DNA of 64,000 bases, from the NCBI GenBank assembly GCA_964628025.1, contig CAZVLL010000005.1:68729-132728 (forward strand). Direction: 5' to 3'. The notes under the pieces were generated by a model. It was not told the origin of the DNA. It was given only the letters and a program-made list of their open reading frames with translations, and did no database searches. A program made the position numbers and the translations under genes. Source of the stretch: an uncultured Syntrophaceae bacterium. GTDB lineage: Bacteria; Desulfobacterota; Syntrophia; Syntrophales; UBA2192. This document shows, piece by piece, positions 4,716 through 58,047 of the stretch. Numbering within the stretch: the first letter of the stretch is position 1; each line of letters starts with the position of its first letter.

Positions 4716-5552
4716 TCAAACGGTCGGGGCATCCATCGGCCGGTAATCCTCCTCGAGGATGGCGATCGCATCCGCGCCGGCCTTGGACAGGATGCCCGTT
4801 TTTTCCGCACCGAAATAATAAAGATCTTCCGTGGACATGGGTCTGTGGCTACGCCGAAGCCACTCGACCATGGCGGGCTCCTCATCGTTTTGGAAAAACC
4901 ACTGGAAAAGGTTCCGCCTGCCTTTCGCCCGCGCATAGCGTTGCTCGTAGCGGTCTCGCATTGTTTCCAGATTGAGCCGGGCATAGGAGACCTTCTGGCT
5001 TGTTTTGGGACTGGTGCGAGGTTCCGTCGAGACTTCGTCAAACAGCAGAAAACGGGAGTAGAACGAGGCATGGTGAGCCATGACGGAGGCGATAATGTCG
5101 GTGCTGCCGTTCAGATGGATGCCTGTCAGGCGGGTCAGCCGGTAGAAATGCATGGCCAGCTCAGGGGGCAATCCCGCGGGTTCCTCCGTCACCACGAGCG
5201 AAGAGATTTCGCTGAGCTTGCGCCCGGCTCTCCGGAGATCGGCCAGAGGATCGGGGAAAATGCGGTCGGTGGGAAGCCCGAGCCGCGAGTCGGGGATCAC
5301 CGTCACCGATCCGACAAGCCGCTCTCCCTTTTCCGCAAGGAAGATCAGGGTGCCGGGATGCAGATGATGGATCGTGCACCACAGGCCGCTGTCGCGCCCG
5401 AAACGCAAATCGTACCCTTCGCGGATGTAGCCATCATAGACAAGCCGGAAAGCCTTTTCGCGGAGATCCCTGTTGTTGGCGATGAGGATGCACCACTCCC
5501 TGTCGGGACCGAAGCGATATTCGAAATCTTTGCCCAACTGAGTTTCCGTCAT
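4716..5552 (-). CDS. GNAT-fold acyltransferase resembling N-acyl amino acid synthases (FeeM / exosortase-associated type); function uncertain
   Basis: 278-aa ORF with coding-like composition. The N-terminal pattern REKAFRLVYDGYIREGY..., the later LVGSVTVIPDS...LP, and EISSLVV recall the FeeM/LuxI-like acyltransferase fold. This assignment is from memory only. Confidence 0.5.
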   Translation of the reverse strand: MTETQLGKDFEYRFGPDREWCILIANNRDLREKAFRLVYDGYIREGYDLRFGRDSGLWCTIHHLHPGTLIFLAEKGERLVGSVTVIPDSRLGLPTDRIFPDPLADLRRAGRKLSEISSLVVTEEPAGLPPELAMHFYRLTRLTGIHLNGSTDIIASVMAHHASFYSRFLLFDEVSTEPRTSPKTSQKVSYARLNLETMRDRYEQRYARAKGRRNLFQWFFQNDEEPAMVEWLRRSHRPMSTEDLYYFGAEKTGILSKAGADAIAILEEDYRPMDAPTV

Positions 5553-5806
5553 CTCCCGGTGAATCGCTCCGTCATCGGTAAAATAACTCCGCCCTCATGC
5601 CGGTCTGGTCCCGCATTCATCAAAGGGATCCATCCCCGGCAGGGTCATCACCCTTCGACAGGCTCAGGATGACGTGAAGCTAGGGTATGAGAAAGGGTCC
5701 CCCGTGTCAATAGGAGGCTGGGGATATCAAGAGAGTATCAAAGAATAAATATTTCGTGTACGATAGGACACTGTTTTCGTGAACATTCCTTCGAAAGGAG
5801 ACCGGC

Positions 5807-20256: not shown

Positions 20257-20331
20257 TGGGGCGTCGGCAAGCGGTAAGCCACGGGACTTTGGCTCCCGCA
20301 TTCGGAGGTTCGAATCCTCCCGCCCCAGCCA
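20257..20331 (+). tRNA. tRNA-Gln (anticodon UUG), CCA encoded
   Basis: Hand-folded cloverleaf. Acceptor TGGGGCG/CGCCCCA. Anticodon stem CGGGA/TCCCG with loop CTTTGGC (UUG at 20289..20291). T-arm GGAGG-TTCGAATC-CCTCC. Closely resembles E. coli tRNA-Gln. The ispE-tRNA(Gln)-prs-rplY-pth context is conserved. Confidence 0.9.
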
Positions 20332-28410: not shown

Positions 28411-28671
28411 CAAAAAAAATTGGTGGATGACGGACGGCTCATCCACCAATTTTATATTAAAAGAGAGGTTATTCCCCAACCCCCTCCCTTTTCTGTAGGG
28501 GGTCGGCGGATGGAAAGGAGGGAACCAAAAACCATCCGCCGATTCGCAAACCTAAAGCACGATCAGATGCTTGGCGACTATTTATGAGACCTTTAGAGAG
28601 GATCTACCTTTCCTATTCGATAAATTCATTATCTCTCTTTATGTTAAAGGTCAGTCTTCCAAAGGTCTCGT
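28411..28671 (-). ncRNA. candidate sigma54-dependent sRNA 1 (about 260 nt)
   Basis: Bounded by the sigma54 promoter (28697..28682, predicted start about 28671) and an intrinsic terminator (12-bp stem 28450..28419 plus U7-8). Contains the conserved hairpin 28542..28503. There is no credible ORF, and the next gene downstream is on the opposite strand. Confidence 0.45.
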
Positions 28672-28681
28672 ATTTGTATTT

Positions 28682-28697
28682 AGCAATAACAATGCCA
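28682..28697 (-). promoter_or_regulatory. sigma54 (-24/-12) promoter, TGGCATTGTTATTGCT
   Basis: The minus strand reads TGGCAT-N5-TTGCT, with GG and GC separated by 10 nt. It sits inside a 24-nt box (28680..28703) that matches 39462..39485 at 23/24 positions. Confidence 0.6.
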
Positions 28698-28760: not shown

Positions 28761-28777
28761 CGTGCGAAGTTAGCACA
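28761..28777. promoter_or_regulatory. candidate enhancer (UAS) site CGTGC-N7-GCACA
   Basis: CGTGCGAAGTTAGCACA, 64 bp upstream of the -24 element. Confidence 0.45.
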
Positions 28778-28846: not shown

Positions 28847-28863
28847 TGTGCTATAAAAGCACA
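28847..28863. promoter_or_regulatory. candidate enhancer (UAS) site TGTGC-N7-GCACA
   Basis: TGTGCTATAAAAGCACA, a perfect palindrome in its arms, about 150 bp upstream of the -24 element. An extra GCACA half-site lies at 28839..28843. Confidence 0.5.
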
Positions 28864-28869
28864 TGGCCT

Positions 28870-31020
28870 CTAAGTGACCGGATCTCCTCCCATTCCAACC
28901 TTCTTTAATTCTCGTATCAACGCGTACCTTGATATATTCAACAACTGGGCCGCTTTTGTCTTGTTGCCCCTGCTGAGCTCCAGAGCTCTTGCAAGGATGC
29001 GCTCCTTGATCTTCCCCGTAAGTTTCTCAATGGCAAGCTTGTAATCGATCCTCTCTGTTGCCGATGCGAGGGAGAGCAGTTCATCGACATGGACGACCGG
29101 ATCCTGTGCGGCCGACGATTTGATCTCTGCCGGAATGTTTTCCGGTGTGATGTAACGACCCACCCCGCGAAGGATCATGATCCGTTCAATGATGTTTTTG
29201 AGTTCGCGAACGTTTCCCGGCCAGGAGTATCGACGGAGAATCTCCTCGGCTTCCTTGGCAACACCCTTGACCTTCTTGTTAAATTTTCTGTTGAATTCTT
29301 CCACGTAGTGGCGCGCGAGCAGTACCAGGTCGTCGCCCCGCTCCCTCAGAGGCGGGAGAATAACCGGCACCACGCTGATACGGTAGAAAAGATCCTCACG
29401 GAAGGACCCTTCCGACACCAGCCTCGACAGATCCCGATTGGTGGCAAAGATGAAGCGCACATCGACAGGAATGGTCTCGTTGCCGCCGAGGCGACGGATA
29501 TATCCGTCCTCCAGCATCCGGAGAAACTTGGCCTGAAGGGGAAGACTCATGTCGCCGATCTCGTCAAGGAACAGTGTTCCCGCGCTTGCATATTCGAGAA
29601 GACCAATCTTCCGCTTCCTCGCATCGGTAAAGGCACCGGCCTCGTATCCAAAAAGTTCGCTCTCCAGAAGGGTGCCGGGAATGGCGGCGCAGTTCACATC
29701 GACAAAACGCTTCTGACTCCTGAGGCTCTGCCGGTGGATGGCCCTGGAGACCAGCTCCTTGCCCGTTCCGCTCTCGCCCTGGATGAGGATATTCGTATCG
29801 TGCTTGGCCACTTCCTCGATGACATGGAAAATGCCCATCATCTTTTTGGACTTGCCCAGGATGTTGTGAAAGCCGAGCAGAATGTCTTCCCGCTCCTTAA
29901 GCTTCTCCACCTCCGTCTTCAGCGACTTGGCCTCGATGGAAAGCATCGACTGCATGATGGCGCTGTCGTAGGACGTGGCGGCGTTGTTGACAAGGATGTC
30001 AAGGACATTGATCTGGTCCTGGGAATAGTTCCCCGCCCTCATTCCCAGCAGGAGAACTCCTTTAAATCGATCCTTCACCTTCAGGGGAATCGCAACCTCG
30101 GAGGGATAACCCTCATAGAGGGGCACGGCGCTGCCTGTCTCCGAATCCGGTTCCTGGACGGTGATGGTATCGTGGTCGAGGGCACTGCGGATGATCGTTT
30201 TGTCGATACGGGTGCTGTACTCATTCTTTTCGTCGATGAACCCCCGCTCCCCGTCATTGATGAAAACCCGATTCTTCTCGATGTCGAGAAAGTAGATGAG
30301 AGCCTTTTCGGCCTTCCCGATCCGCAGAGCACTGCGGATCAGGATCTCGTGGATTCGCTCGATCGAGTAGGTGGAATTCAGGTCCGAGACGGCTTCCTGC
30401 AGGATGAGCAATTGATCGATCTTTTCACGATTGATCTCGAAGAGGCGCGTGATGTGTGTGATGATGCTCACCTGGTTGGCAAAGGTAAGCAGGATATCGA
30501 TTTCGTCGAGGGAGAACCGCGTTTTCTCCTTGGTCCAGACGGCGATGATGCCGATGACATCGTCCTCGATCCTCAGGGGTGCATAAAAGGTGGATCCGCG
30601 CTTGTAGAAGGCGGATATTTTCCGGTCTGTCTCCGTTGTCCGGGGGTCCTTCTCGGAGTCCTCGAGGGCAATGTACTTTCCCGTCTTGGCCACCCGCGTT
30701 TCGAAGCTGTCATGTTTCTTGAGGTTCAGGTGCACCGAAAAAGCTCTCCGGGCCTCCTCGTCACTGTAGTTCTTCACGACCCGCGTGATCAGGTTTTCCC
30801 GGCTTTCGTCGAGCAACAGGATAATCCCCCGGTCAAACCCCATGGAACCGACAACTTCATCAAGGATCTTGCCGAGGATGTCTTCGACACTGGAGGGGGC
30901 CGTGAGAAATGTGCTGATCTGGAATATCCCCTTGATCAGCTTGTCTTTGTCGATGCTGTAGGCCGACGATGTCCTGATGGGGGGGGGGATCGTTCCGCCC
31001 TGCTCGATGATTCGCGCCAT
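28870..31020 (-). CDS. sigma54-dependent transcriptional activator (GAF-GAF-AAA+-Fis HTH)
   Basis: The track ORF is 28870..31116. I trimmed it to ATG 31020 (MARIIEQGG...) after AAAGGTGGA. Walker A GESGTGKE; sigma54-contact loop ESELFGYEAGAFTDA (GAFTGA variant); C-terminal HTH GNKTKAAQLLNISRYALIRELKK; two GAF-like N-terminal domains. Confidence 0.9.
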   Translation of the reverse strand: MARIIEQGGTIPPPIRTSSAYSIDKDKLIKGIFQISTFLTAPSSVEDILGKILDEVVGSMGFDRGIILLLDESRENLITRVVKNYSDEEARRAFSVHLNLKKHDSFETRVAKTGKYIALEDSEKDPRTTETDRKISAFYKRGSTFYAPLRIEDDVIGIIAVWTKEKTRFSLDEIDILLTFANQVSIITHITRLFEINREKIDQLLILQEAVSDLNSTYSIERIHEILIRSALRIGKAEKALIYFLDIEKNRVFINDGERGFIDEKNEYSTRIDKTIIRSALDHDTITVQEPDSETGSAVPLYEGYPSEVAIPLKVKDRFKGVLLLGMRAGNYSQDQINVLDILVNNAATSYDSAIMQSMLSIEAKSLKTEVEKLKEREDILLGFHNILGKSKKMMGIFHVIEEVAKHDTNILIQGESGTGKELVSRAIHRQSLRSQKRFVDVNCAAIPGTLLESELFGYEAGAFTDARKRKIGLLEYASAGTLFLDEIGDMSLPLQAKFLRMLEDGYIRRLGGNETIPVDVRFIFATNRDLSRLVSEGSFREDLFYRISVVPVILPPLRERGDDLVLLARHYVEEFNRKFNKKVKGVAKEAEEILRRYSWPGNVRELKNIIERIMILRGVGRYITPENIPAEIKSSAAQDPVVHVDELLSLASATERIDYKLAIEKLTGKIKERILARALELSRGNKTKAAQLLNISRYALIRELKKVGMGGDPVT

Positions 31021-31096: not shown

Positions 31097-31113
31097 CGTG
31101 CGAATCGTGCACA
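31097..31113. promoter_or_regulatory. candidate autoregulatory site CGTGC-N7-GCACA
   Basis: CGTGCGAATCGTGCACA, 8 bp upstream of the -35 of the activator promoter. Confidence 0.4.
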
Positions 31114-31242: not shown

Positions 31243-33273
31243 TCAGGCTTTGTCGTAGCGGAGGAATTGCATGGTGAAGATCGCCCGACCCTGGGTGGCA
31301 GAGCGCAGGTCTGTGGAATATCCGAAAAGCTTCCGGAGAGGCACATTCGCTTTGATCTCGGTGACGGGTCCCTTCGGCGTTACGGACTCGACTTCCCCCT
31401 TTCGGGCGTTGATGTCGCCGATCACCTCTCCCATGAAGTCCCGCGGTGTGAGAATATCAACCCGCATGATCGGCTCCAGGAGGACCGGACCAGCCTTGGA
31501 GCAGCCGTCCCTGAAAGCCGTGGCCGCGGAAATTTTGTACCCGACGGGAGAGGACTCTCCTTCCCTGAAGGATCCCCCCGTAATGCGGACCTTCACGTCC
31601 TGCACGGGGTAACCCGCCATGACACCGCTGAGAACCGCCTCTCCGAGGGACTCTTCGATGACAGAATGGAATTCCTCCGGGATGGTCTCGGGCATAAGCT
31701 CGTTTTTCATCTCGATACCGGTGCCTCTCGGGAGAGGCTCCAGAACGAGTTTCACGTGGCCGAAGTGCTTCTTCTCTCCGAGCTCGCGCTCGAAGCGCCC
31801 TTCCGTCTCGACGGCCTTCTGTATCGTCTCCCGGTAAACGACGCGGGGCTTGCCAACGTTCACATGAACGTTGTACTCCCGCAGCAGCCTGTCCACGACG
31901 ACTTCGAGATGGAGCTCCCCCATCCCCGAAATAAGGGTCTGAGCCGTTTCCTCGTCGTACTTCACTTTCAGCGTGGGGTCTTCGTCGGTGATCTTTTCGA
32001 GCACACCGGGCAGCTTTTCCTGGTCTCCGGGGGTCTTCGCCTCGATGGCCTGACTGATGACGGGATTATAGAATTCGATGGATTCCAGGATGATGGGTTT
32101 CGATTCGACGCAGAGGGTATCCCCGGTGGTGCTGTCTTTGAGCCCTGCGATGGCAATGATGTCTCCCGCTCCGGCCACGTCGATGCGCTCACGCTTGTTG
32201 GCGTGCATCTTCAGAAGCCGTGCAACCTTTTCCTTCCGGCCCTTTGTAGCGTTGTAGACCTCGTCACCGGCCTTGAGCAGACCGGAATAGATGCGGGCAT
32301 AGGTGATCTTGCGGCCTTCCATCATGGATACCTTGAAGGCAAGCGCCGTAAAGGGCTCTCTGTCGCTTGCCTCGCGTCTCTCTTCGGCCTTGGTCACGGG
32401 GTTGATCCCCTTCACGGGCGGGACCTCCTCCGGCGACGGAAGGAAATCGACGACGGCATCCAGGATAGGCTGGATTCCCTTGTTCCGCAAAGCCGCCCCA
32501 CACAGGACCGGGACAAGCTTGAGGGATACCGTTGCCTTTCGGATGGCCCGGATCAACTCGATATCGGAAATGGGAATCTCGCCCAGATACTTATCCGCAA
32601 TTTCGTCGTCGACCTCTGCAAGCGTCTCCAGCAGCTTTTCGTGCCCGGACTCCGCCTCGGCACGGAAGTCATCCGGGATGTCGGACACATCATACGCCGC
32701 TCCCAGAGTGCTCTCCTGCCAGGTAAGCAAGCGCATGCGGATCAGATCAACGATACCCCGAAAATGTTCCGCCTCTCCGAGAGGCATCTGAACAGGCAAC
32801 GGAGCGGACAGGAAGCGCTCCTTCATCATCGCGATGGCTCCAAAATAGTCGGCTCCGATACGGTCCATCTTGTTGATGAAGGCGATTTTGGGAACCCCGT
32901 ATTTGTCGGCCTGGTGCCAGACTGTCTCGGACTGGGGCTCGACCCCTTCCACGGCCGAGAACACGACGACGGCCCCATCGAGGACCCGGAGGCTCCGTTC
33001 CACTTCGATGGTGAAGTCCACGTGCCCCGGTGTATCGATGATGTGGACTTCGTGGTTTCTCCAGTCACAGGTGGTTACGGCGGAGGTGATGGTGATGCCT
33101 CGTTCCTGCTCCTGGGGCATCCAGTCCATGACGGCTTCACCGTCGTGCACTTCACCCATTTTATAAGACTTGCCCGTGTAGAAGAGAATCCGCTCCGTCA
33201 CGGTCGTTTTTCCCGCATCGATGTGGGCAACGACCCCGATGTTGCGGATTCTGGAAAGCTTCACTCTTGCCAT
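31243..33273 (-). CDS. elongation factor G paralog (stand-alone, outside the str operon)
   Basis: About 676 aa. G1 [17 protein letters not shown] and NKMD motifs, then EF-G domains II-V. ATG 33273 is preferred over TTG 33279. Confidence 0.9.
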
Positions 33274-33360
33274 GGGCAAACCCAGTCCTGTCCGGCCGGA
33301 GGCATGATCAAGGCGACTGCAGAACGGATCATCTCTGCCGACCCGTTTCGGAGTTCCGCC

Positions 33361-33978
33361 CTACCCGCCGGCCGCCGTCTGCTTCACGAGTTCCTTGTTT
33401 GGGGAAATGGATTCCCGGAGATCGACGTGTCCCTTGATCGTCGTGGTGTCCCTGCCGCCGACCTGAATCCGGATTCTCTTGATCTCCGGCAGGTTCTGGG
33501 CGAGCGTGTTCGCAAGGGAATAAACGGTGGCCACTTCACTGGCGGTACCACCGGGATGCTGCTCGATGAAGGGGTTGTCGAAGTTCAGAGTTGCGGTGCC
33601 TTCGGCGATGCGAATCCCCAGCAGCCTGACTCCTGCGGGAATCGTCCGGATTTGCCCCATCTTCGGCCCCTCAATGAGGGCCCGTACGATCTCTTCGGCC
33701 TGGGCGGTCGCGTTCTTGCCTTTCGGGACAAATCGCTTCTCCGGAACCAGAAATCGTTCGTTGGCATCGGAAAAGTAAAGCACCACTTCCTTTTTTTCCC
33801 GTTTTGCCGCCGCCTGCTCGGCATCGGGCGGGAAGATCGAATCCGAGAGGGCCCAGAACAGAAAAGCCAGGAATCCGCCACCGATGACAACGGCGGCAAG
33901 GATGTAAAACAGCCTGAAGGTTTTCTTCTTCTTTCGCGTCTTGAATTCTTCGGTTCGTCGTTGTCGCTTGCTTGCCAT
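33361..33978 (-). CDS. GerMN domain-containing membrane-anchored protein
   Basis: A basic N-terminus and one TM helix, followed by a GerMN-like pattern (VVLYFSD...LVP..R.V.......AEEIVRALIEGP...IPAG..LLGI.I..GTATLNF). ATG 33978 is preferred over GTG 33984. Confidence 0.7.
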   Translation of the reverse strand: MASKRQRRTEEFKTRKKKKTFRLFYILAAVVIGGGFLAFLFWALSDSIFPPDAEQAAAKREKKEVVLYFSDANERFLVPEKRFVPKGKNATAQAEEIVRALIEGPKMGQIRTIPAGVRLLGIRIAEGTATLNFDNPFIEQHPGGTASEVATVYSLANTLAQNLPEIKRIRIQVGGRDTTTIKGHVDLRESISPNKELVKQTAAGG

Positions 33979-34012
33979 AATCACTCGGTTCCGCCAGCCC
34001 GCAGTTCACCGG

Positions 34013-34780
34013 CTACAGCCTCATCAGTTTCTCCCTGGATTTCACCGCCCAGTCCGATTCGGGGGCCAACTGTATGACCTTTTTGAACGACTCGGCGGCC
34101 TCCTTGCGCTTGCCCAACTGCACCTGGGTCATCCCGAGCCAGTAATGCCCCTCGATGAGATTGGATGCCCGTCCAATGGACCTGGCCAGATTTTTTTCTG
34201 CCTCGAGGTACAAACCTTCCTCGTATTCGATGACTCCCAGGTTCAACTCCAGGACGGGCAGCAGGTTGGTGTTCGGCTCCTTCCGGATGGCTTCGCTGAA
34301 GCTTGCGGAGGCACCCTTCAGATCCCCTTTCGCCTTGTAGGCCCTCCCCATGTTGTACAGGGGCACCGACGGCGTTTCGTAGAGAGGGTTGGCCAGCGCC
34401 CGGTTGAAGCATAGAATGGCTTCCTCATAACGTCCCCGGTTCAGGTAGACGGTCCCGAGATAATTCTGTGCCTCGGAATAATCGGGCTTGAGTGCGATGG
34501 CCTTCTGGAACTCCTTGATGGCGTCATCCACAAAACCTTTTCGCTCATAGGCAATCCCGAGAAAGTAGTGTACGGCGGGATCATTAGGGGTCAGCTTCTC
34601 GGCCTCGAGGAGTTCCTTCAATGCCGGGGTAAACTGGCCGGCCTGGATCTGCGCCTTCCCGATACTGATATGTCCGCTGGCCTTTTCCCGGAGTTCCGCA
34701 TCCGAGGCACAGCCGGCAAGGATCGTTACCAGGACAACCATTCCCGCAAATCCCATCATCCATGAACGGGTTCTTTTCAT
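34013..34780 (-). CDS. tetratricopeptide-repeat lipoprotein
   Basis: I trimmed it to ATG 34780 (MKRTRSWMMGFAGMVVLVTILAGC) after GGGAG. Several TPR units are present. Confidence 0.75.
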   Translation of the reverse strand: MKRTRSWMMGFAGMVVLVTILAGCASDAELREKASGHISIGKAQIQAGQFTPALKELLEAEKLTPNDPAVHYFLGIAYERKGFVDDAIKEFQKAIALKPDYSEAQNYLGTVYLNRGRYEEAILCFNRALANPLYETPSVPLYNMGRAYKAKGDLKGASASFSEAIRKEPNTNLLPVLELNLGVIEYEEGLYLEAEKNLARSIGRASNLIEGHYWLGMTQVQLGKRKEAAESFKKVIQLAPESDWAVKSREKLMRL

Positions 34781-34794
34781 GTTTCTCCCTCGTT

Positions 34795-35370
34795 CTATTT
34801 CCGGTTTCCGTTGACCCACCAGTCGCTCTTATCCTGAAACCACCACTGTGTCCAGTCCGTTTGGAGAATCGTGTCGGCCACCTTCCGCCCCTCATCCGTG
34901 CAGAGCCGGCGGACGGCATAGTCCAGCCACTCCTGGCTGTACTGATTTCCCAGGTCCCCGTATTCCTTGAGCTGCAGGATGAGAGCAAGCTGATCGGCAT
35001 CGTGAGCCAGCAGGGCTTCCCTCGTTTTCTTCTCGTTGAATTCCTGAATGACGGTTTTGATCTCGGCACCGAAGGGAAGACGCTCCGTCAGCTCCCGGAC
35101 TGCTTTTTCCTCGTCAACGGTGACGTACTTCTTGTACATGTAGTTCTGGTCGCCCGTCCTCGCCTCGGGAAGATCATGCACGAGGCACATCCGGAGAACC
35201 TTCAGCTCATCGGCGGCGGGATCGAGCTTGCAGAGGGAATAGCCGATGAAAAGGGTCCTCAGGATATGTTCTGCGACGGATTCCTTGCCGGAGCCGAGAA
35301 ACCGAAACCCCGTACGCGGGGTTTTGTTCAGCATGCCCACTTCAAAAAGAAAGTTTGCGATTTCCTCCAT
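34795..35370 (-). CDS. HD-domain phosphohydrolase (YfbR-like 5'-nucleotidase type)
   Basis: 191 aa. RTGF...ESVAEH and VHDL.E..TGD motifs. Confidence 0.8.
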   Translation of the reverse strand: MEEIANFLFEVGMLNKTPRTGFRFLGSGKESVAEHILRTLFIGYSLCKLDPAADELKVLRMCLVHDLPEARTGDQNYMYKKYVTVDEEKAVRELTERLPFGAEIKTVIQEFNEKKTREALLAHDADQLALILQLKEYGDLGNQYSQEWLDYAVRRLCTDEGRKVADTILQTDWTQWWFQDKSDWWVNGNRK

Positions 35371-37483: not shown

Positions 37484-38896
37484 TTACTTCATGGGCGCTA
37501 TATACGGAATGGTCAGTGCAAAGTACCAGCACAGGAAAAAGACAAGCGGGATGTGAATGAGCATCTGCAAAACAGAATAGCCGACGAGATCCCTTGCCTT
37601 CATGTGCAGAATCCCCAGGAGCGGAAGCATCCAGAAGGGGTTGAGCAGGTTCGGAAGCGCCTCTGCGGCGTTGTAGATCTGGACGACCCATCCGAGGTTC
37701 ACCCCGTGCTGCACGGCCGCCGTGAGGACGTAGGGAGCCTCGATGACCCACTTGCTTCCGCCGGAAGGGATGAAGACCCCGAGGACGGCAGAGTAAAGGG
37801 CCACCAGCAGCGAGTAGGTCTCTTTCGTCGTGATGGCAACAAAGAGATCCGCCAGCCACTTGTTGATCCCCGTGCCAACGATCATGCCGAAGATCACGGC
37901 GTAGAAGGGAAATTGGATGAGCACGCCACCCGTGGCCGGCACGGATTGCGCCACGGCCTTGAGGAACCGCTTGGGCCGCCAGTGCAGCAGCATGCCCACG
38001 GTGATGAAGATCAGGTTGTAGTTGTTGAGATCCAGCGCCGCGATGGGCCCCCGGGGTTCCTTCTGGAAGAAATCGAAGAGATACCAGGCAAGAATACCGC
38101 CCACAAGAACGATTAGGGCAGGGCTGTACTCGAGCCACTCGCCGGGCTTCTGCCGGGGCTCAAGGCTCGTGTCGATGGGATCAAATTTCAAGCCGTAGTC
38201 CTCGACCGTTTTTGCCCGCTCGGGCTTGGGAGCTGAGAAGTAAGCGATGACGACGGAAACAACGATCAGGGCAACGGCGGTCCAGAATGTCGGCCAGATA
38301 AAGAGGGTCTGAGTCAGGGGGATGAGTCCGCTGATTTCATAGAGCTTGGGCGGAATCGATCCCTTGGTGGCCATCATGAGGGCGGCTGAGGATGAAAGGC
38401 CCAGCGCCCAGACGGCGCCCAGCCCCAGGTAGGCGGCCGCACCGGCTGCGCGGAAATCCATGCCCTTGATAGTGCGCGACATCTCGCGGACGAGAAGTCC
38501 GCTGAAGATGAGGCTCAAGCCCCACGAGATGAGCGAAGTAATCATGGAGAAAAAAGCAATCCATGCGATCGCCGCCCTGGGATTCGTGGTGATGCCGGCC
38601 ACCTTCCTGATGACCCAGTAAACGGCCGGGGTGGTTGCCACGACATAGCCACCGATGATGATCAATGCCATTTGCATCGTGAAGGGAATGAGAATCCAGA
38701 AGGACTTTCCTCCCTCCCAGACCAGCTTCTGGGGGCTTTCCCCGATGAGAAGACCGAATACAAAGACAAAGACGATGCCGATCAAAGCAAATACCCAGGC
38801 ATCGGGAAACCACTTTTCGCTCCAAGCGGCCAGCCAGAGGCCGAAACGCTCTAGGGCATTTTCCCCCTGCTCAGCTTTTTTGATGTTCTCTGCCAT
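37484..38896 (-). CDS. atoE: short-chain fatty acid transporter (AtoE family)
   Basis: 470 aa, polytopic. The N-terminus ...LERFGLWLAAWSEKWFPDAWVFALI... and overall pattern match my recollection of the AtoE/TIGR00366 family. AAAGGAGGGG RBS. Confidence 0.8.
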   Translation of the reverse strand: MAENIKKAEQGENALERFGLWLAAWSEKWFPDAWVFALIGIVFVFVFGLLIGESPQKLVWEGGKSFWILIPFTMQMALIIIGGYVVATTPAVYWVIRKVAGITTNPRAAIAWIAFFSMITSLISWGLSLIFSGLLVREMSRTIKGMDFRAAGAAAYLGLGAVWALGLSSSAALMMATKGSIPPKLYEISGLIPLTQTLFIWPTFWTAVALIVVSVVIAYFSAPKPERAKTVEDYGLKFDPIDTSLEPRQKPGEWLEYSPALIVLVGGILAWYLFDFFQKEPRGPIAALDLNNYNLIFITVGMLLHWRPKRFLKAVAQSVPATGGVLIQFPFYAVIFGMIVGTGINKWLADLFVAITTKETYSLLVALYSAVLGVFIPSGGSKWVIEAPYVLTAAVQHGVNLGWVVQIYNAAEALPNLLNPFWMLPLLGILHMKARDLVGYSVLQMLIHIPLVFFLCWYFALTIPYIAPMK

Positions 38897-39155
38897 GCTT
38901 TTCTACCCCTCCTTTCGTTAGAATCGTTCATGCATCCCGACACGGAAGCGCAGCTGCATACGATCGCCTTGCAAATCGAATCGACACGGGCACAGCGCCG
39001 CCCCCACCTGATTAATTGTGTTGATCAACTCTCCGGGCACCTTATCGTTCCGCAGGGTATGAGGACAAAGAGAAATAATTCTTCGCCCGACAAGAAATCT
39101 GATAATTATAAACGGACTTGATACGGCCCCTATCCGCGATCACCCCCTTCCCCGG

Positions 39156-39199
39156 AAAAAAACAAAAAAAACCCCGTTCACAGGACCGTAAACGGGGTT
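39156..39199 (-). terminator. intrinsic terminator ending the sigma54 transcript, about 270 bp upstream of the atoE start
   Basis: AACCCCGTT/AACGGGGTT 9-bp stem, followed on the minus strand by U6-G-U7. Confidence 0.7.
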
Positions 39200-39453
39200 A
39201 TGTATCTTGTCCATCTCATGGTTGCAACACCACGGCAGGTGACTTCTGTTTTTATTTTCTTCTCATTCCAGCATGCCTATAACAGATTGATGATGTTTAT
39301 TCAATAGGATTGACAATTTTCCCTTTTGAAAGGGCATCGGTGGATGGAAAGGAGGGACCAAAACCATCCACCGATTAACCGCTTTCGAAAGGGGCGCCGG
39401 GAAACTTGGGGGTCTGCCAGGGTCTTTCTAATTTCCGTGAGCGCCACTAGTGC
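39163..39453 (-). ncRNA. candidate sigma54-dependent sRNA 2, or a terminator-containing leader of atoE (about 290 nt)
   Basis: Sigma54 promoter at 39479..39464 with predicted start about 39453, conserved hairpin at 39375..39336, terminator at 39199..39156. No credible ORF. Confidence 0.45.
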
Positions 39454-39463
39454 TCTCAAAGTT

Positions 39464-39479
39464 AGCAATAACGATGCCA
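39464..39479 (-). promoter_or_regulatory. sigma54 (-24/-12) promoter, TGGCATCGTTATTGCT
   Basis: The minus strand reads TGGCAT-N5-TTGCT. Paralogous to 28682..28697. Confidence 0.6.
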
Positions 39480-39615: not shown

Positions 39616-39632
39616 TGTGCGATAAAAGCACA
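39616..39632. promoter_or_regulatory. candidate enhancer (UAS) site TGTGC-N7-GCACA
   Basis: TGTGCGATAAAAGCACA, about 137 bp upstream of the -24 element. It differs from 28847..28863 at one spacer base. Extra half-sites are GCAC at 39544..39547 and TGTGC at 39564..39568. Confidence 0.5.
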
Positions 39633-39793
39633 AATAGCGTTCAAATACCGCGAGCATACAGTGGACGGGGGCTTCACGGCTGTGCGAATATCGAACCTTT
39701 AGTGCTCCGCACGCACATTCAGGCCGTCCTTTCCCTCTTGACTCCGATCCTCAACAGAAATTCTCGCTTTTCGCGAGATAACATGTTTTCACC

Positions 39794-56847: not shown

Positions 56848-58047
56848 ATGAGCGAAGAGAGAAACGGAAGGCACCCGGTAACGGCAAACTGCGGGGTGGA
56901 AGGTCTGGCACGATTCAAGTCATTCCATCACATTCCGGAGTTCCGGATCGGAGGAACCTACAGCTTCGATGACCCGTCGTCCTGGGAATGCGGCGGTCCC
57001 GACGGCGTGACCCTGGAATCGCTCGGCGAAGGCTCCCTGCGCACGGCCTGCATCGCCGTCGGCACGCCCCATCGGGACGCAGACGGGCACATCGACAACG
57101 CCGTTCTTTTCAGCCCCTTTTACTCCGGCGATGCAACCCTGATGTATTTCTACTGGTACCGCGGTCAGGGAGGAAACGACTTCTGCGGCGGCCCGGTCGT
57201 GGGCCCCGGCGGACTGATCGACACGGATCGTTACTACGTCATTTTCCTCGACGCCCTCGGCCTCTGGGGTGCCGGCAAGCCGAGTGACGGTCTCGGCCTG
57301 CGGTTCCCGCAATACACCCTCATGGACTGCGTCCAGGCCAACTACCGGATGCTGCGGGACCACCTGAAGGTAAGCCGGGTGAGGCTCGCCACGGGAACCT
57401 CCATGGGTGCGATCCAGAGCTATCTCTGGGCCCTCATGCACCCGGGCTTTGTCGAGGCCATCATGCCCATGGGCGGTATCACGGAAACGGACGCCAACCT
57501 GCAGTGGCTCTTCCGCCTCATGTCGGCGGCCATCGAAAGCGATCCCGCATGGCGCGAGACCGGAGGCAATTACTACCACCTCCCGAAGGAAAAGCATCCG
57601 TGCCGGGGCGTCATGTTCGGTTGGTCGATCCTGTTCCACTCGGCCATGAGCTACGACTACCGGATCGAGATGGGCTGGGACGAGGTCCAGAAAGAGGTTT
57701 TCGCCTGGGAATTCCAGGGAAAGGAGGGAGCCCTCCTCATTCCTTACGGCCGAAATTACGATGCCGTCGACCTGCTGTACCGGAATCACGCGGGAAGGAC
57801 CCTGAACGTGACGCCGGACCTTCACCGCATCCGGGCAAGGACCCTCATCCTTCATGTGGCCAACGACCACTGGGTCCGGCTTAGCATGGCCCGGAAGGTC
57901 CACGAACGCATTCCCGGATCCGAGCTTTGCTCCTTCGAACACCCGCTGGGACACTATGCCCTCTTCCGGGCGCCGAATGAATTCCGCGACAGGATTGCAT
58001 TGTTCCTCGAAGATTCTTCCCCGAAGGCAACAGGAGGAAAACCGTGA
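56848..58047 (+). CDS. alpha/beta hydrolase (homoserine O-acetyltransferase-like fold)
   Basis: 399 aa. Nucleophile elbow GTSMGA and a C-terminal His region. The RBS is weak. Confidence 0.65.
   Translation: MSEERNGRHPVTANCGVEGLARFKSFHHIPEFRIGGTYSFDDPSSWECGGPDGVTLESLGEGSLRTACIAVGTPHRDADGHIDNAVLFSPFYSGDATLMYFYWYRGQGGNDFCGGPVVGPGGLIDTDRYYVIFLDALGLWGAGKPSDGLGLRFPQYTLMDCVQANYRMLRDHLKVSRVRLATGTSMGAIQSYLWALMHPGFVEAIMPMGGITETDANLQWLFRLMSAAIESDPAWRETGGNYYHLPKEKHPCRGVMFGWSILFHSAMSYDYRIEMGWDEVQKEVFAWEFQGKEGALLIPYGRNYDAVDLLYRNHAGRTLNVTPDLHRIRARTLILHVANDHWVRLSMARKVHERIPGSELCSFEHPLGHYALFRAPNEFRDRIALFLEDSSPKATGGKP

Follow-up and report, generated by a model that had tools for sequence, protein, structure and literature searches.

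The DNA analysed here, referred to as the window, is a 64-kb stretch from a Syntrophales (Syntrophaceae-like) bacterium. It carries two copies of a hairpin, HP1, whose loop on the minus strand displays an anti-Shine-Dalgarno (anti-SD) motif. Each hairpin lies inside a complete predicted minus-strand transcription unit, and it is very probable that both units produce a structured minus-strand RNA driven by a sigma-54 promoter. We suggest that this RNA acts in trans, its anti-SD loop pairing with ribosome-binding sites (RBSs), a reading to which we assign a probability of roughly 0.6. The RNA is best read as a member of a new, lineage-specific family of base-pairing small RNAs (sRNAs) that depends on sigma-54 and an enhancer-binding protein (EBP). 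The architecture is that of a base-pairing sRNA: the promoter is dedicated to it, a conserved C/U-rich loop stands exposed on a stem that is stable and covaries, and both an A/U-rich stretch and a Rho-independent terminator are present. We infer from the sequence that the RNA is made, that the EBP is its activator and that the loop works in trans on RBSs. The two hairpins are:

28503-28542, minus strand: HP1 of copy 1, an 11-bp stem with the anti-SD loop UUUUUGGUUCCCUCCUUU.
39336-39375, minus strand: HP1 of copy 2, a 12-bp stem with the loop UUUUGGUCCCUCCUUU.

On the plus strand, copy 1 reads TCGGCGGATGG (28503-28513), loop AAAGGAGGGAACCAAAAA (28514-28531) and CCATCCGCCGA (28532-28542), and copy 2 reads ATCGGTGGATGG (39336-39347), loop AAAGGAGGGACCAAAA and CCATCCACCGAT (39364-39375). 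An earlier note on this DNA had described the hairpins, and its description holds: both lie where it placed them, with the letters it gave, and the arms form a perfect inverted repeat in each copy. The paired difference C28507:G28538 versus T39341:A39370 is real and is the sole difference in the stem, and the loops of the two copies are identical except for two extra A residues. The small hairpins that the note saw 3' of each copy in the RNA sense (28480-28502 and 39321-39334) are both present in the minimum-free-energy folds. A 16-mer, GGATGGAAAGGAGGGA, is common to both hairpins and occurs exactly twice in the window. The anti-SD motif shown by the HP1 loop is CCCUCCUUU, which is unpaired in the minimum-free-energy folds of both RNAs; the fuller loop sequence, UCCCUCCUUU, complements the extended Shine-Dalgarno (SD) sequence AAAGGAGGGA. 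When a covariance model of the hairpin was run over the whole window with filters off, the two copies scored 66.7 and 64.3 bits, both on the minus strand, and were the only strong matches. Their plus-strand echoes scored 24.4 and 20.7 bits, the next distinct site was the copy-1 terminator (20.7 bits), and no third copy of the hairpin was found in the window. By this model, each window RNA has one anti-SD hairpin.

The structure of the RNA appears to be under selection, as the earlier note had argued from the double substitution between the two copies. In a set of 51 homologous hairpins, all distinct, no cell of the nine inner stem pairs is unpaired, and three HP1 pairs show compensatory changes (UA in 41, CG in 8 and UG in 2 hairpins; GC in 44, AU in 4 and GU in 3; GC in 22, AU in 21 and GU in 8). 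Overall, 93% of the cells are paired, compared with 31-58% when the 3' partner is slid. Read on the minus strand, the sense of the EBP gene, every one-sided intermediate is G·U; on the plus strand the same wobble cells, of which the nine inner pairs hold 18 and pair 4-44 a further 7, would be A·C mismatches. Therefore, we take the minus strand to be the functional RNA. The note's proposal that this strand is transcribed is further supported by the promoter counts and the terminator T-runs, which agree with the G·U intermediates.

The covariation extends beyond HP1. A consensus built from 47 complete 3' modules has the order HP1 with its anti-SD loop, a CCCCC tract, HP2, the linker UUUAUAUA and the terminator HP3, and 18 of its 26 pairs show compensatory changes; HP2 shows covariation in the RNAalifold consensus. 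The predicted RNAs of the window fold far more stably than shuffled sequences, with z = -5.25 for copy 1 and -4.23 for copy 2.

The signals that define the two transcription units, and the EBP gene with its own upstream site, are as follows:

28682-28697, minus strand: sigma-54 -24/-12 promoter of copy 1, TGGCATTGTTATTGCT, with 0 mismatches; predicted start at about 28671.
39464-39479, minus strand: sigma-54-type promoter of copy 2, TGGCATCGTTATTGCT; predicted start at about 39453.
28762-28776 and 28848-28862, no strand assigned: two GTGC-N7-GCAC palindromes, 86 bp apart, upstream of the copy-1 promoter; candidate enhancer sites (upstream activating sequence, UAS).
39617-39631 and 39702-39716, no strand assigned: two GTGC-N7-GCAC palindromes, 85 bp apart, upstream of the copy-2 promoter.
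31098-31112, no strand assigned: GTGC-N7-GCAC palindrome; the EBP start codon lies about 75 nt downstream of it.
28870-31020, minus strand: gene of the sigma-54 EBP, with GAF, AAA+ and HTH_8 domains; 716 aa from the ATG at 31020.
28586-28669, minus strand: 5'-terminal stem-loop of copy 1, outer stem GAGACCUUUGG / CUAAAGGUCUC, present in the minimum-free-energy fold.
28464-28502, minus strand: CCCCC tract and HP2 region of copy 1, followed by the A/U-rich linker UUUUAAUAUAAAA.
28412-28453, minus strand: intrinsic terminator HP3 of copy 1, stem UUGGUGGAUGA..., then U8, from a terminator scan.
39378-39450, minus strand: structured leader of copy 2, stem GGCGC..GGAAAU / GUUUCC..GGCGCC, with the C-rich loop AGACCCUGGCAGACCCC, from the fold.
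39321-39334, minus strand: small hairpin of copy 2, CCCUUUCAAAAGGG, directly 3' of HP1 and conserved in copy-2-type loci.
39164-39199, minus strand: intrinsic terminator of copy 2, AACCCCGUUUACGG...GAACGGGGUU, then a U-run.

Both promoters are perfect matches to TGGCAT-N5-TTGCT, and the pattern TGGCAY-N5-TTGCW occurs in the window at these two promoters only, even with one mismatch allowed. Thus both copies have, at a suitable distance upstream of the RNA, the -24/-12 promoter (GG-N10-GC, TGGCAC-N5-TTGC) of sigma-54-dependent sRNA genes. We also counted strict sigma-54 promoters within 500 nt upstream of the hairpin, on the same strand, at 63 related sites. The promoter is present at 52 of the 63 and at none of the 63 in each of three control positions. 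In the window and the related loci, HP1 lies 77-450 nt downstream of the promoter. The GTGC-N7-GCAC palindrome occurs six times in the window, with 0.85 expected, and five of these are at the loci described here, two at each RNA gene and one before the EBP gene. Those at the RNA genes stand 65-240 nt upstream of the two window promoters; in related loci, they are found 60-100, 140-180 and 220-280 nt upstream. The palindromes look like enhancer sites, and the one before the EBP gene may be an autoregulatory site. At the other end of the unit, a terminator with a U-tail follows an A/U-rich single-stranded stretch, as in sRNAs of the Hfq type, and the linker before HP3 is conserved.

The predicted ends give a copy-1 RNA of roughly 260 nt (about 28671 to 28412) and a copy-2 RNA of roughly 290 nt (about 39453 to 39164). 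In the 5' stem-loop of copy 1, analysed in 14 homologues, 6 of 12 pairs show compensatory changes, and the intermediates are all G·U. For the HP2 region, the copy-1 fold offers an alternative pairing, CCCCCU/GGGAGGGGG. The copy-2 leader is kept in about 13 loci of the copy-2 type. Its C-rich loop, AAGACCCUGRCAGACCCC (39395-39425 in the window, minus strand), is conserved in L006, L010, L013, L026 and others, and could be a second seed region.

The same arrangement is found in relatives, however they are collected. Three orthologous loci were fetched through the EBP protein (64-73% identity), with no selection on the RNA. All three have the palindromes, the sigma-54 promoter, a hairpin with an identical loop core and the terminator, downstream of the EBP gene. 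A scan of a genome collection, with the loop and three closing pairs fixed, matched at least 80 loci, and the full hairpin is present in 73 of the 80 listed. All but one of these 73 belong to Syntrophales, Syntrophaceae or 'Deltaproteobacteria'-type metagenome-assembled genomes (MAGs), the exception being L052, which is labelled Solibacteraceae. The remaining seven listed loci, from other phyla, lack the arms and are about the number expected by chance; one Rhodospirillaceae match among the loci listed has no stem. At least 55 related Syntrophales sites lie downstream of a same-strand EBP orthologue (51-100% identity) and, like copy 1 of the window, converge on patatin or YchF genes. About 13 sites are of the copy-2 type and adjoin an acyl-CoA dehydrogenase orthologue. 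Both copies are found on one contig in several genomes and, among the loci listed, one genome has three copies.

In a metagenome scan the stem was fixed and the loop left free at 12-22 nt. Of the 123 loops obtained, 81 contain CCCTCCTTT, and a further 22 keep the CCUCC core, mostly as ACCCUCCUCU, within the same HP1-HP2-HP3 architecture. The rest comprise 9 C-run or C/U-rich variants and 11 unrelated GC-rich palindromes. The loop motif is therefore conserved independently of the loop-based search pattern. Two groups of metagenome sequences stand apart. Five hairpins (L104, L135, L138, L140 and L142) combine the family stem with the loop UUACCCCCCCAAGAAGUUG, and a CCCUCC tract follows immediately 3' of this stem. 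The 500 nt searched for a strict sigma-54 promoter contained none, and these hairpins may represent a diverged branch of the family. On the GC-rich contigs L204 (about 5400-5560) and L177, tandem hairpins GGTGGGTGG-CGTTTCCCTCTCTCTCTCCG-CCACCCACC with CU-dinucleotide loops lie upstream of open reading frames (ORFs). These probably belong to an unrelated element of another kind whose stem is alike by chance.

The earlier note had further proposed that the RNA grew by internal duplication, having observed that the stem of the copy-1 terminator resembles that of HP1. The resemblance is confirmed: TTGGTGGATGA/TCATCCACCAA is a near-copy of the hairpin stem, the site at which the HP1 model scores 20.7 bits, and by its sequence HP3 of copy 1 is most simply described as a degenerate duplicate of HP1. 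Growth by duplication also finds support among the relatives. Among the related loci, 18 have a second anti-SD loop, GUCCCUCCUUUU, in the terminator hairpin, where it sits on a GGCGGAUGG stem; at three others, an additional anti-SD hairpin lies upstream of HP1. In total, second or third anti-SD hairpins are present in 21 loci.

The EBP gene lies directly upstream of copy 1 on the same strand. Its product matches the Pfam families Sigma54_activat (1.1e-67), GAF_2, AAA_lid_14 and HTH_8, and its orthologues, which number in the hundreds and are labelled Syntrophaceae or Syntrophales by their source, are 716-725 aa long. An exact look-up of the protein found no record. Identification as NifA, AtoC, NorR or PrpR was rejected, as the score is under every NCBIfam equivalog cut-off. 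We presume that this protein activates both RNA genes. Upstream of it are genes for EF-G-like, Germane-domain and TPR proteins (31243-34819, minus strand), with the same synteny as in L001-L005; in more distant relatives, genes for a cNMP-binding protein and a K+ channel are inserted right before the EBP gene. Copy 2 is flanked by a divergent acyl-CoA dehydrogenase gene and, downstream on the same strand, by a short-chain fatty acid (SCFA) transporter gene.

In the mechanism we propose, the EBP would bind the upstream GTGC-N7-GCAC enhancer sites and activate both sigma-54 promoters, and a signal sensed by its GAF domains would switch the RNA genes on. The resulting RNA would consist of a structured 5' leader, a very stable HP1 exposing UCCCUCCUUU, a second hairpin, an A/U-rich stretch and an intrinsic terminator. 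Its loop would pair with the purine-rich SD regions (AAAGGAGGGA) of particular mRNAs and block binding of the 30S subunit. The lead target candidate in the window is the mRNA of the SCFA transporter:

38906-38916, minus strand: RBS GAAAGGAGGGG of the SCFA transporter gene (37484-38896, minus strand), perfectly complementary to the loop sequence CCCUCCUUUC over 10 nt.

The transporter gene, identified by Pfam SCFA_trans, is located immediately downstream of copy 2. Its RBS core, GAAAGGAGGG (in CGAAAGGAGGGGTAGAAAAGCATG), forms 10 contiguous Watson-Crick pairs with the loop, and the orthologous gene in L022 keeps GAAAGGAGGGA despite a different spacer. Besides the antisense strands of the hairpins themselves, AAAGGAGGG occurs at two places in the window, and the transporter has the only RBS that contains it. 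In a ranking of 53 greedy-called window genes, this RBS is first by exact complement and third by duplex energy. The other AAAGGAGGG lies in GGGAAAGGAGGGAGCCCTCCTC (57714-57745, plus strand), a self-complementary SD/anti-SD-like hairpin inside an alpha/beta-hydrolase ORF (56848-58047).

In many relatives the transcript also carries a small ORF. In most EBP-linked relatives, the sigma-54 transcript first encodes a Lys/Glu/Asp-rich ORF of 63-93 aa with two FF[LI]S[DE] motifs, located between the promoter and HP1. Its C-terminus resembles SDxFFLSDYPWDD and often ends in ...FFLSDYPWDD. At about 40 related loci (L012, L024, L027, L047, L004, L008, L030, L040, L041, L045, L048, L049, L015 and some 25 more), HP1 starts 5-43 nt past the stop codon of this FF-motif ORF. 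The corresponding region of the window, 28543-28681, does not contain it. The FF-motif protein has the look of a disordered protein that bears short linear motifs and shares its transcript with the anti-SD module. In many copy-2-type loci, a hydrophobic ORF of 40-48 aa follows HP1, for example MDKRIKRCLTNPAILVLALIYLSS... (L010, 6442-6564, plus strand), and it is present at equivalent positions in L022, L055, L057, L059, L077, L026, L031, L013, L043 and L006. Because most differences between loci fall at third codon positions, the hydrophobic ORF is suggested to be coding. It is missing from copy 2 of the window and from L085. Likewise, copy 1 and its nine closest relatives have no ORF, yet the hairpin, promoter and terminator are kept. 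A Pfam search with both kinds of small ORF returned no family. In most relatives, then, the module is the 3' untranslated region (UTR, copy-1 type) or the 5' UTR (copy-2 type) of a small ORF, and the lineage of the window has lost both ORFs. A more elaborate idea, which we hold to be improbable, is that the Syntrophales unit is a two-part sigma-54 output, an SD-less FF-motif protein and a 3'-UTR RNA imitating the 16S tail. When the GAF-type EBP senses a metabolic signal, the unit would globally reprogramme initiation from SD-led to SD-independent mRNAs, and the window lineage would have kept the RNA half, in two copies.

The UTR placement raises an alternative to action in trans, one that we judge rather unlikely. 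HP1 could be a cis-acting element that stabilizes the sigma-54 transcript or controls translation of the ORF on the same transcript, or copy 2 could be an attenuating leader of the SCFA transporter gene, in which the loop sequesters the SD after terminator read-through. The short distance from the FF-motif stop codon to HP1 is consistent with such a role, as is the position of HP1 before the hydrophobic ORF in about 11 copy-2-type loci. The leader variant agrees with the 10-nt loop complement in the transporter RBS, and no sigma-70-like promoter was found between copy 2 and the transporter gene in the window; a strong intrinsic terminator, however, separates the two. The retention of hairpin, promoter and terminator in the ORF-less copy 1 and its nine closest relatives argues against a cis role, and so does the lack of an ORF at copy 2 of the window and at L085. 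Moreover, the two paralogue types place the hairpin on opposite sides of the ORF (3' in one, 5' in the other), as would be expected more of an independent module than of a cis element tied to one position. Pairing of the loop with the RBS of a small ORF on the same transcript was considered and rejected: the RBSs of the FF-motif ORFs lack an SD, and their complementarity to the loop is limited to 2-6 nt. For this reason intramolecular sequestration of an SD of the FF-motif ORF is disfavoured, and the data fit a hairpin module that is a constant, independently acting part of the transcript.

The RNA might instead be a decoy directed at a protein or at the ribosome, titrating a factor that recognizes the 16S tail or competing globally for SDs. 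The loop copies nine bases of the 3' tail of 16S rRNA, CCUCCUUUC, and it is invariant on a stem that varies. One to three loop copies per RNA, up to three RNA genes per genome and the strong, switch-like expression that a sigma-54 promoter would give are also compatible with titration. We nevertheless think a decoy unlikely. Global competition would need ribosome-like abundance, and we know of no protein that binds this motif in bacteria. Because variants such as ACCCUCCUCU keep complementarity to the SD and lose identity to the 16S tail, pairing with GGAGG is favoured over mimicry. The last two readings concern the DNA and the opposite strand. On the plus strand, the loop AAAGGAGGGA is a perfect extended SD and contains a GGA within a hairpin loop, so that it could be a hairpin of the type bound by CsrA/RsmA or a sequestered RBS. 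This is very improbable: the wobble cells counted above become A·C, the covariance score is about 40 bits lower, neither copy has a start codon at RBS distance after the loop, and promoter, terminator T-runs and EBP gene are all oriented with the minus strand. That the palindrome is a DNA site for a dimeric protein, as the perfect inverted repeat of the arms in both window copies might suggest, is scarcely credible. Conservation lies in the asymmetric 16-19 nt spacer and not in the arms, whose covariation passes through G·U states in which the symmetry of the DNA is broken, and the hairpin is located 77-450 nt downstream of the promoter, inside a unit that ends in a terminator; candidate protein sites, GTGC-N7-GCAC, are found elsewhere. 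Both readings were set aside because of the G·U pattern and the way promoter and terminator are oriented.

Several points weigh against a trans-acting, EBP-controlled RNA. The target call is weak, since any anti-SD complements many RBSs: two other window genes score as well as the SCFA transporter by duplex energy, and an RNAduplex scan over all possible ORF starts in the window was uninformative, being dominated by spurious GC-rich ORFs. The UTR placement in most relatives would also fit a role in cis or in mRNA stability. The assignment of the EBP as activator is built on adjacency and shared palindromes only, and the transcription start, RNA ends and abundance are read from sequence signals. 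Finally, relatives were sampled by pattern, the genome scan fixing the loop and three closing pairs and the metagenome scan the stem, and homologous sequences share kinship, so the shuffle controls are not probabilities.

No match to the family was found in Rfam or in the literature searched; the principle of the anti-SD loop is already established. The sole Rfam or ARAGORN match in the window is a tRNA-Gln (anticodon TTG) at 20257-20331 on the plus strand, and an Rfam 15 gathering scan of the whole window found no RNA family beyond this tRNA. Rfam E-value scans of both RNA loci gave chance-level matches only, far under the gathering scores; those to atoC-RNA, PyrR and L10-leader at 39160-39340 were dismissed as noise driven by the terminator, with no more than 22 bits where the gathering scores are 44-54. 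A full-text literature search on Syntrophus small RNAs found no paper, and post-transcriptional regulation of Syntrophales appears not to have been described. These bacteria (Syntrophus, Smithella and relatives) degrade fatty and aromatic acids in methanogenic communities and are poorly studied and ecologically important. The locus offers a well-delimited regulatory module, with a sensor/activator gene and its candidate DNA sites, an sRNA whose seed is obvious and whose promoter is of the sigma-54 type, and a plausible target in SCFA uptake. The states seen in the family (ORF with 3' UTR, 5' UTR and free-standing sRNA) would illustrate the birth of sRNAs from UTRs and their growth by hairpin duplication.

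Among known systems, the closest by architecture is Pxr of myxobacteria, whose gene lies directly downstream of nla19, a sigma-54-dependent regulator gene, and has a sigma-54 promoter, three predicted stem-loops and paralogues in some genera (PMC5568312). The position after a sigma-54 regulator gene, the promoter and the three stem-loops are shared with the Syntrophales RNA, as compared by description only. The location differs: Pxr lies between nla19 and an NADH dehydrogenase gene (PMC5568312), and the RNA here is flanked by a GAF-type EBP gene and, on its other side, a patatin or YchF gene. Pxr is also only about 108 nt long, and nla19 is described as a response regulator, whereas the Syntrophales EBP has N-terminal GAF domains. 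Other sigma-54-dependent sRNA genes adjoin regulator genes as well: crcZ adjoins cbrB, and qrr1 adjoins luxO. CrcZ and CrcY of Pseudomonas are CbrB- and sigma-N-dependent sRNAs with upstream EBP sites (PMC6296734). Together with Qrr (LuxO) and GlmY (GlrR), they resemble the Syntrophales RNA in having sigma-54 promoters and, as predicted for the latter, upstream EBP sites. However, CrcZ sequesters Hfq/Crc via A-rich motifs, Qrr and GlmY use other seeds or mechanisms, and none of these RNAs has an anti-SD hairpin loop or sequence similarity to the Syntrophales RNA. GlnZ of Enterobacteriaceae is a base-pairing sRNA from the 3' UTR of the NtrC/sigma-54-dependent glnA mRNA (PMC9731577). The HP1-HP3 module of the relatives, as the 3' UTR of the FF-motif ORF, is similar in this respect; the window RNA differs as a predicted primary transcript without an ORF, and its seed is different. 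A CsrA-sequestering RNA of the CsrB/RsmY type was rejected, as the loop GGA is present on the plus strand only and the G·U pairs, promoter and terminator indicate the minus strand.

By function, the closest family is that of the alphaproteobacterial cuckoo RNAs (alpha-r14 / NfeR1 in Sinorhizobium, CcsR/RSs0680 in Rhodobacter), in which 2-4 adjacent hairpins carry the loop motif CCUCCUCCC, an ultraconserved C/U-rich anti-SD that pairs with RBSs, and which have several paralogues per genome (PMC4615179, PMC10746234). Membership in this family was rejected on loop motif, taxon and Rfam model match: CCUCCUCCC was not seen in the 51 and 123 hairpins examined. Instead of CCUCCUCCC in 2-4 hairpins, the Syntrophales RNA has (U)CCCUCCUUU in 1-3, one of them doubling as terminator. 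It occurs in a phylum other than that of the Alphaproteobacteria, and its promoter is of the sigma-54 type, in contrast to the sigma-70 promoter of NfeR1 (PMC10746234). What the two have in common are modular hairpins, stems that vary by compensatory change, a conserved anti-SD loop and paralogues. If our reading is correct, the cuckoo type of anti-SD hairpin sRNA has an independent origin outside the Alphaproteobacteria.

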